Source: Escherichia phage Ec_O157kw. From it: DNA of 64,000 bases. The DNA lies in sequence record PV857777.1, one strand, 5' to 3'. The notes below the pieces were generated by a model. It made no database searches and was not told the origin of the DNA. It worked only from the letters and a program-made list of their open reading frames with translations. Both the position numbers and the translations under genes were made by a program. Shown one piece after another: positions 43,917 to 44,907 of this stretch; position 1 is the first letter of the stretch; each line of letters starts with the position of its first letter.

Positions 43917-44549
43917 ATGATTTATTATATGCACAAAAATCCACCGTTTAAATACGGTAAATTTCCTGATGCACAATGTTATAATATAACGCCTGATGAA
44001 AATAACCGTGGATATCTTATTGGCACAATTTTTGTAATTGTTAAAGATAACGAAATCGTTGCCTGGGCAGATTTTAAAGGTACAACATATGATGTTAATC
44101 CGGTGCCTTTCACATATTACAATTTAATGGATTTGGCATACGATTATAATTGGTTTAATCATGACACTTTGGCTCATATTGAAGGTGTAGGATTTGATAT
44201 TTCATATTCGGAATACACTTTAAGCCCTATGAGTCGAGCCCATAAAGAACCTGAATATTTTTCATTTAGGAAACGTGTAAACTTTAAACGCAGCACAGAG
44301 TATGTCGGTGGAATATTTGTTAAAGATAATCGAATTACTCGCATTATTTATCCTTTGGGCTGTGGTCAAAAAGATATTGATGTTAATTTAGACTTTACTG
44401 AAAACATCATTAATCATATTGCTTCTGTGTATTTTGGTATCGATCACAAAATTGTAATATGTGGATATGAATTACCGTTTGAAGAACAGCCTAAAGTAAA
44501 AGTTTCTATTGACGATCAAATTTTTAATGCTTTTATGAATAAAGGTTAA
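43917..44549 (+). CDS. Hypothetical protein at the T4 61.2 position (AdfA-like, anti-DarT candidate)
   Basis: 210 aa; positional equivalent of 61.2; C-terminus SIDDQIFNAFMNKG duplicated in the next gene. Confidence 0.5.
   Translation: MIYYMHKNPPFKYGKFPDAQCYNITPDENNRGYLIGTIFVIVKDNEIVAWADFKGTTYDVNPVPFTYYNLMDLAYDYNWFNHDTLAHIEGVGFDISYSEYTLSPMSRAHKEPEYFSFRKRVNFKRSTEYVGGIFVKDNRITRIIYPLGCGQKDIDVNLDFTENIINHIASVYFGIDHKIVICGYELPFEEQPKVKVSIDDQIFNAFMNKG
44505..44549 (+). repeat. Direct repeat, copy 1 (45 bp)
   Basis: TCTATTGACGATCAAATTTTTAATGCTTTTATGAATAAAGGTTAA; 42/45 identical to 44863-44907. Confidence 0.85.
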
Positions 44550-44550
44550 T

Positions 44551-44907
44551 ATGTATAGTTCTGAATTTTCATATTTAAAAATGGAAAAAATTTCATACGA
44601 TTTTATAGATGAAAAGGTTTATTACAGTTTCCATGAACCGCGTTTTAATAGTGAGGTTGGGTTTATTGTAGTAAAAGACAATTTCATTTTAAAGATATAT
44701 TCGGCATTAAAGGATTTTCACTATGAAAATATTAACCTAAAATTTGATAAAGAAAACGTTCGTAATTGTGCAGTAACAATTACAGGAAATAAAGGTACGT
44801 GTGTTATGCTATCTGATGAAATTAATGATTTGCTAAATGATGCAGAAAATATTACTGCGCCATCTATTGATGACCAAATTTTTAATGCTTTTATGAATAG
44901 AGGTTAA
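44551..44907 (+). CDS. Hypothetical protein at the T4 61.1 position
   Basis: 118 aa; C-terminus SIDDQIFNAFMNRG. Confidence 0.5.
   Translation: MYSSEFSYLKMEKISYDFIDEKVYYSFHEPRFNSEVGFIVVKDNFILKIYSALKDFHYENINLKFDKENVRNCAVTITGNKGTCVMLSDEINDLLNDAENITAPSIDDQIFNAFMNRG
44863..44907 (+). repeat. Direct repeat, copy 2 (45 bp)
   Basis: TCTATTGATGACCAAATTTTTAATGCTTTTATGAATAGAGGTTAA. Confidence 0.85.

Follow-up and report, generated by a model that had tools for sequence, protein, structure and literature searches.

Why do two adjacent genes of Escherichia phage Ec_O157kw, upstream of its DNA primase gene 61, end in almost the same nucleotides? The question is raised by a 64,000-nucleotide (nt) stretch of record PV857777.1, called the window in what follows. 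In it, the final 45 coding nt of open reading frame (ORF) 43917-44549, which is adfA (gene 61.2 of phage T4), and those of ORF 44551-44907, here gene X, match at 42 of 45 positions when they are compared in register at an offset of 358 nt. We think it very probable that this shared gene end is a multi-purpose 3' module, which combines a tail peptide, the middle promoter P61, translation start signals and a recombination joint of gene cassettes. AdfA, P61 and the short-homology recombination of T4 are already known. As far as the searched literature shows, what is new is that one repeated module unites all three, that the tail extends to X and to a further family, Y, and that evidence for gain, loss and conversion of cassettes at the tail comes from natural populations.

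The repeat and the promoter within it

An earlier note on this DNA had claimed the near-identity of the two gene ends. Aligning both ends reproduces it and extends it to 46 of 49 nt, including the T and the ATG of the downstream gene (Table 1). The copies are 358 nt apart and have an exact core of 25 nt, and sequence identity drops at once beyond either edge. Since the spacing equals the 357 nt of X plus one, the copies flank exactly one gene. The exact bracketing described in the earlier note thus stands, but the bracketed gene, which it called the 61.1-position gene, is an extra gene that T4 does not have; 61.1 itself is the next ORF. The note also overlooked the promoter P61 and the ribosome-binding site inside the repeat, as well as the identity of 61.2 with AdfA. 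Also borne out in both proteins is the common C-terminus, SIDDQIFNAFMN(K/R)G, followed by TAA-T-ATG, and the 45 coding nt of copy 2 show no differences from the tail of T4 61.2. When a 46-nt pattern of the repeat was searched with at most three mismatches, only two sites were matched within the window and none in 100 dinucleotide shuffles of it (0/100), by which a chance origin was rejected.

The start site of the T4 middle promoter P61 has been placed at 19122 (PMC2988021 Table 1, crediting Marshall, Sharma & Hinton 1999). We took as MotA-dependent promoters those formed by a Mot box, of consensus (a/t)(a/t)(a/t)TGCTTtA and centred near -30 (PMC2988021), at 12 +/- 1 base pairs (bp) from a sigma-70 -10 element TAtaaT, without a -35 element. 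With its start at 19122, the T4 promoter has its -10 element TAATAT at -12 to -7 (positions 19134-19129), in which TAA is the 61.2 stop codon, T the spacer and AT the beginning of the 61.1 start codon, and its Mot box TAATGCTTTT 12 bp further upstream, so that the P61 elements all fall within the repeat. The same Mot box, which agrees with the quoted consensus at 9 of 10 positions, is found in both copies of the window, each time with a 12-bp spacer and then TAATAT; in copy 1 this hexamer consists of the TAA stop, the T and the AT of the X ATG. Copy 2 shows no differences from T4 P61 from -40 to +3, and the published start maps exactly onto 44917, the ninth nt of 61.1. Copy 1 departs from the T4 promoter elements at one spacer position only, -17, and its equivalent start would be at about 44559, within codon 3 of X; it presumably fires in vivo. 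In the annotation of phage Lutter, made independently, the same 27 nt are marked as a promoter in both copies of the repeat.

As a control, the Mot-box scan was run over T4 17000-23000, where it gave one match, with its predicted start at 19122. In the window the scan yielded 14 matches on the plus strand, versus 3.7 expected, and 4 on the minus strand, versus about 3.7 expected. This strand bias fits a MotA regulon on the strand of early and middle transcription; motA and asiA themselves should lie beyond the 64-kb window, as judged by synteny with T4. A scan of the repeat site for a sigma-70 early promoter (-35/-10) or a terminator found none. Phage RB6 has neither AdfA nor X, and Mot box and P61 are both absent from it; because the Mot box is missing where both genes are missing, P61 travels with the tail.

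The repeat also carries translation signals, its final 13 nt, A(G/A)AGGTTAATATG, being the Shine-Dalgarno sequence and start codon of the downstream gene. The same 13-14 nt, in the form TTAGAGG(C/T)TA(A/G)TATG, follow sp in ASO78A, RB6 and Manna, none of which has AdfA, whichever gene comes next. An AU-rich repeat that spans a Shine-Dalgarno sequence and a start codon could in principle work on the mRNA, as a translational operator, a coupling hairpin or a nuclease site, and copy 2 does offer a weak hairpin in which UCUAUU pairs with AAUAGA. We regard this as highly improbable, as the folding energies are no better than those of shuffles (z +1.7 to -0.96), copy 1 does not retain the hairpin, a search of Rfam up to E 1 found nothing, and neither compensatory changes across the genera nor a mapped protein-RNA interaction were seen.

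Because transcripts from P61 start within codon 3 of 61.1, they cannot yield the complete 54-aa product of that gene. In the T4 adfA deletion described in the literature (61.2 delta 65-196; PMC11257639 strain table) the last 12 codons remain, and with them the Mot box and -10 element of P61 and the ribosome-binding site of 61.1. In general, deletions in this region, 61.2 deletion alleles among them, may remove or retain P61, depending on their endpoints.

The tail peptide and the gene bodies

The tail was collected with a degenerate protein-level pattern and tblastn, which gave 43 tails in four genera. Three families that occupy the slot between sp and 61.1 have it in common: AdfA in Tequatrovirus and Mosigvirus; X in Tequatrovirus, with X-like proteins in Gaprivervirus; and Y (phrog_8539, 122-145 amino acids (aa), 86 records) in Gaprivervirus and Dhakavirus. 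All tails read (S/D)(I/V)DDQIFNAFM(N/K)(K/R)(G/D), then a stop, then (T/A)ATG, and nearly all differences among the 43 are synonymous or conservative. Some synonymous changes break the core GCT of the Mot box, which is GCA in Mosigvirus and GCC in Y of Gaprivervirus and in one Dhakavirus. Because the Mot-box core changes while the peptide stays, the promoter is not the main or sole cause of tail conservation, and the tail peptide is itself under selection.

The converse would be that only the DNA is constrained, with P61 and the ribosome-binding site conserved and the peptide incidental. Mot box, spacer, -10 element and Shine-Dalgarno sequence together do account for 28 of the 49 nt, and the 25-nt core is invariant within Tequatrovirus. 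Nevertheless, we consider this explanation very unlikely. Besides the Mot-box core, other synonymous sites vary under a constant peptide; the amino acids SIDDQ are conserved, though the 5' third of the repeat that encodes them is upstream of the Mot box; and between genera the tails of orthologs diverge about as much as their bodies (84% versus 86% nt identity).

The distribution of the tail variants is also informative. Gaprivervirus has a different tandem pair, Y and an X-like gene, with the same common tail, and tails of one genus resemble each other whatever the gene family: FMKR is found in both families of Gaprivervirus, FMN(K/R)G in those of Tequatrovirus. When 1.84 billion representative proteins were searched with a profile, X-like clusters and AdfA were all that came back, apart from a low-complexity artefact (P0009); word-indexed family searches had little depth and gave 5 and 16 clusters. 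Matches of the degenerate pattern in unrelated bacterial contigs (L034-L036), where the SIDDQI context is absent, were set aside as chance.

How far the gene bodies are related was judged from several comparisons. X scores 31.9 bits against the Pfam AdfA model, above the cut-off of 27, over model positions 113-211 only, and the score comes mostly from the tail. With their tails, X and AdfA match at E 1.7e-11; without them, hhalign gives E 4e-4 to 9e-3 at a probability of 4-36% and BLASTP gives E 0.003, for an alignment that consists only of a weak hairpin motif, G-I-VKDN-I. Foldseek connects the AdfA model with a 118-aa protein of the X family (E 3e-4, TM 0.50), the models being of moderate quality. 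The AdfA model had no match in PDB (best E 0.29), and BFVD returned its own family and X only. It is built of two beta-meander-plus-helix halves, after which a variable linker leads to a terminal helix (198-207); the AlphaFold confidence (pLDDT) is 60 for X, 70 for AdfA and about 56 for the tail. X has no alignable equivalent of the AdfA position His164, which is discussed below. Y without its tail gave no signal with X or AdfA in hhalign (E 0.12 to 0.24). All in all, X is probably related, remotely and as a single domain, to the C-terminal half of AdfA.

These likenesses, together with a tail whose amino acids are conserved under synonymous changes between genera, are what ordinary paralogy would predict: X would have come from a tandem duplication of the C-terminal half of adfA, and the tail would have been kept by purifying selection, with no role in recombination or regulation. 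The earlier note had set ordinary homology between full-length paralogs against its own reading. Some remote homology does exist, between X and the C-terminal half of AdfA, but the tail is conserved far beyond ordinary paralogy: in the window pair its nt identity is 93%, while the bodies reach 44% (P = 8e-11). At positions of this pair with identical amino acids, codons agree at 10 of 12 in the tail versus 9 of 27 in the body (P = 0.005). For X and the Y of Dhakavirus the bodies are unalignable and the tails match at 43 of 45 nt, with same-codon counts of 11/28 versus 11/13 (P = 0.008); the comparison in DK-13 gave P = 0.08. To judge from these identities, the tail is younger than the gene bodies. 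Paralogy as the whole explanation also sits badly with the sorting of variants by genus instead of gene family, with the chimeric, converted and triplicated tails described in the next section, with the published P61 start falling on the repeat, and with Y, which has the tail without detectable body homology. Overall, we hold it to be unlikely.

The shared C-terminal interaction tag that the earlier note suggested is plausible: it would fit both the strictly conserved amino acids of the three families and the predicted terminal helix behind a variable linker, and the tail would have a shared molecular partner. A bolder version, which we put forward only tentatively, is that the tail is a portable docking helix joining the anti-toxin "warheads" AdfA, X and Y to one partner, with the DNA serving as promoter and recombination joint of a plug-and-play anti-defence array, and with X and Y as inhibitors of other toxin or defence systems. 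Were this true, the tails that co-vary within a genome (FMN in Tequatrovirus, FMK in Gaprivervirus) would track a common partner. Apart from that version, X itself may well be an anti-defence protein.

Recombination at the tail in natural phages

Related genomes with one, two or no copies of the repeat exist, and their junctions have recombined inside it, which supports the idea of the earlier note that a cassette was inserted or duplicated by recombination between short homologies. The relatives were checked for variants with a single copy or another gene, and all four combinations of the two genes were found: AdfA plus X (window, AR1, Lutter), AdfA only (T4), X only (ASO78A, T2, RB32) and neither (RB6). 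In a rough census of Tequatrovirus records, the junction of the tail to 61.1 occurs in 473, the junction of AdfA to X in 154, and X, at 90% identity or more, in 294 phage records. The count of 154 refers to records with a junction of AdfA, ending in the AAA codon, to X, any AGA-to-X exceptions being obscured because BLAST joined pieces from both ends of X. By implication, both genes are present in about 154 records, X stands alone in about 140, AdfA stands alone in about 179, and about 30 lack the two.

The K/R codon near the end of the tail tracks the downstream gene. It is AAA in 8 of 8 AdfA-to-X junctions, and AGA in 6 of 6 AdfA-to-61.1 junctions and in nearly all X-to-61.1 junctions; AAA-to-61.1 junctions are rare, with 3 exact matches among the 473 records, and these are themselves recombinants. 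A deletion of X by recombination between the copies should leave a chimeric tail, and the predicted one was found in 101112UKE3-1, with GAC GAT, specific for copy 1, followed by AGA, specific for copy 2. The Asp-codon haplotype and the K/R codon are found in every one of their four possible combinations, which puts the crossovers within the 25-27-nt core. In PinkRuby the two tails are identical at 49 of 49 nt, a full conversion, and Manna is an X-only phage with a converted tail. In vB_Eco_CP (L042 1230-1345) a 60-bp tandem duplication has given a third tail and promoter. It repeats the last X codons with the promoter and the ribosome-binding site, so that this genome carries three P61-type modules; the triplication may be genuine, from slippage, or may have come from misassembly.

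T4 is able to recombine at homologies of 6-10 bp in the same island (PMC9391042). For the present locus, a deletion at the microhomology TGAATA was tried and rejected, since it fails to reproduce exactly the spacers from sp to X or from sp to 61.1.

Exact direct repeats around X could also be read as the footprint of a dedicated mobile element, left by site-specific insertion of X or by an insertion driven by a homing endonuclease. Homing endonucleases are common in T-even phages, and DK-13 has one 3' of gene 61. We give this reading next to no weight: endonuclease, integrase and transposase genes are absent in and beside the cassette, and the supposed target duplication is functional coding and promoter sequence, which is present with a single member too (T4, ASO78A).

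The model that we favour, then, is that of the multi-purpose module. The 49-bp sequence would form the 3' end of every member of a small group of anti-defence genes, cassettes of which would fill the slot between sp and 61.1/primase in Tevenvirinae. It would have three roles. The 14 residues that it encodes, predicted to form a terminal amphipathic helix, are the best-conserved part of AdfA, X and Y, which are otherwise very divergent; the same bases would carry the MotA/AsiA-dependent P61, whose transcripts would serve the primase gene; and it supplies the Shine-Dalgarno sequence and the ATG for the downstream gene. Where two members stand in tandem, as AdfA and X do in the window phage, the module appears twice, 358 bp apart, and the copies could recombine homologously, by which a cassette would be precisely removed, added, converted or duplicated. 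Exchange would be precise because the module is identical DNA at each cassette end, and the downstream reading frame, ribosome-binding site and promoter would always be left intact.

Several points weigh against this model or some part of it. The promoter is not conserved in all tails, with TGCAT in Mosigvirus and TGCCT in the Y of Gaprivervirus; RB6 manages without P61; and the promoter activity of copy 1 is a prediction from its sequence. Of the four paralog comparisons, only two show a significant excess of codon identity, and that of EAWsc9 (6/10 versus 16/26) is not significant; AT-biased codon usage, moreover, inflates such identity. The moderate AlphaFold confidence, about 56 for the tail, makes the picture of a tethered helix weak. 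Finally, the four-gamete pattern could in principle come from recurrent mutation, and the event that distinguishes the architectures may have gone either way, as a deletion or an insertion of X.

The locus, its neighbours and known systems

The window phage is a Tequatrovirus, and its locus has the T4-type order 41, dmd, 61.4, sp, a 210-aa ORF, a 118-aa ORF, a 54-aa ORF and primase gene 61, in comparison with sp-61.2-61.1-61, without X, in T4. Coordinates of all the features are collected in Table 1.

Table 1. Positions of the repeat, its signals and the surrounding genes in the 64,000-nt window
Feature	Position	Strand	Details
Repeat copy 1	44505..44553	+	AdfA tail codons (SIDDQIFNAFMNKG), stop, T, ATG of X
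Repeat copy 2	44863..44911	+	X tail codons (SIDDQIFNAFMNRG), stop, T, ATG of 61.1
Extra P61-like promoter, putative (copy 1)	44525..44552	+	Mot box 44525-44534, 12-nt spacer, -10 44547-44552
T4 P61 ortholog (copy 2)	44883..44910	+	Mot box 44883-44892, -10 44905-44910
X translation-initiation region (copy 1 equivalent)	44541-44553	+	AAAGG...ATG
61.1 translation-initiation region	44899..44911	+	AGAGG, then TTAAT, then ATG
Gene 41	41634-43061		
dmd	43120-43302		
61.4 (tifA)	43304-43561		
sp (spackle, 61.3)	43622..43915	+	Upstream edge of variable slot
adfA (T4 gene 61.2)	43917..44549	+	210 aa, anti-DarT factor A, Pfam PF23813
Gene X	44551..44907	+	118 aa, RB32ORF033c-like, phrog_4122; T4-absent extra gene
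Gene 61.1	44909..45073	+	54 aa, true T4 61.1 ortholog, phrog_1823
Gene 61	45076..46104	+	DNA primase, served by P61 transcripts

The 210-aa protein matches the Pfam AdfA model over its full length (E 2.4e-137, 455.6 bits) and has 76% aa identity with T4 gp61.2; X matches its PHROGs family at E 2e-72. T4 gp61.2 binds and neutralises the DarT1 toxin if residue 164 is His (PMC11257639). In the window protein this residue is His167 when counted from the annotated start (codon 44415-44417), corresponding to His164 in the numbering of the LeRoux laboratory, and by this His the window AdfA is predicted to be of the DarT1-neutralising allele type. At least three natural alleles of the residue, His/Arg164 in the literature, were seen: His in the window, T4 and some Mosigvirus, Arg in RB69-type sequences, and Asn in Lutter, L017 and P0008. 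The window adfA is also a mosaic with a breakpoint near 44089, its first ~58 codons and the 3' end of sp being Mosigvirus/RB69-like and the remainder T4-like; in AUBRB02, FriedrichMiescher and others the match to the window starts only at query position 490.

Other observations concern the genes around the slot. The 54-aa gp61.1 of the T4 type corresponds to the C-terminal third only of a 155-aa Mosigvirus protein (phrog_2086; L039 3603-4070). On the 3' side of gene 61 (region 46101-46891) there is a 66-aa ORF on the minus strand (46101-46301), then a 203-aa ORF on the plus strand that resembles the dCTPase gp56, and a strong Mot-box promoter match is found at 46313, downstream of gene 61. The dam methyltransferase gene, the 3' neighbour of gene 61 in T4, appears to be absent. 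An unannotated 73-aa ORF (Pfam DUF7279, E 4e-19) was found in Dhakavirus C6 (L004 3044-3262) and Gaprivervirus DK-13 (L019 2111-2310), with its start ATG overlapping the stop of the Y or X-like gene. By eye, its segment ...RPTKRQ(I/L)R... resembles the C-terminal part of gp61.4 (TifA).

As for what the module may mean, the locus belongs to the T-even "anti-toxin island" (dmd, tifA, adfA), the home of counter-defence genes, and the module would explain how close phages can differ in their counter-defence repertoires without harm to an essential replication gene. It nominates as anti-defence candidates the families X and Y, which occur in about 300 and about 86 phage genomes respectively, and its 14-residue motif as the first target for mutation in AdfA.

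Copy 2 is the ortholog of T4 P61 and agrees with it in Mot box, 12-bp spacer and the -10 element made from the 61.2 stop and the 61.1 start; unlike T4, the window phage has this sequence again where adfA ends, 358 bp further upstream, and in some relatives there are three copies. No description of P61 as part of a repeated coding tail common to several gene families was found in the literature. With regard to AdfA (PF23813), the first ORF is a full-length member with the His allele, whereas X covers its C-terminal half only and Y the tail only.

In organisation there is an analogy with the PeSLs of T4-type phages, regulatory cassettes that are mobile and by which modules are shuffled (Arbiol 2010, PMC2839356; Comeau 2014, PMC4122927). 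In both cases, the variable genes of a hyperplastic region are bordered by repeats of short conserved regulatory motifs, and these offer patches of homology for deletion or exchange of the intervening gene, which is seen here in the four architectures and in the chimeric, converted and triplicated tails. However, a PeSL is an intergenic early promoter with a stem-loop terminator, while the window module has a middle promoter and no hairpin and is located inside a coding tail under amino acid selection; identity with a PeSL was rejected because the repeat has neither early promoter nor hairpin. The dmd-tifA-adfA island of T4, its anti-toxin-antitoxin (anti-TA) island (Srikant, Guegler & Laub 2022, PMC9391042), is the same island and likewise undergoes amplification or deletion between short direct repeats. 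The laboratory events in T4 made use of fortuitous microhomologies of 6-10 bp, whereas in the natural populations considered here it is a 49-bp functional repeat that recurs at a fixed joint.

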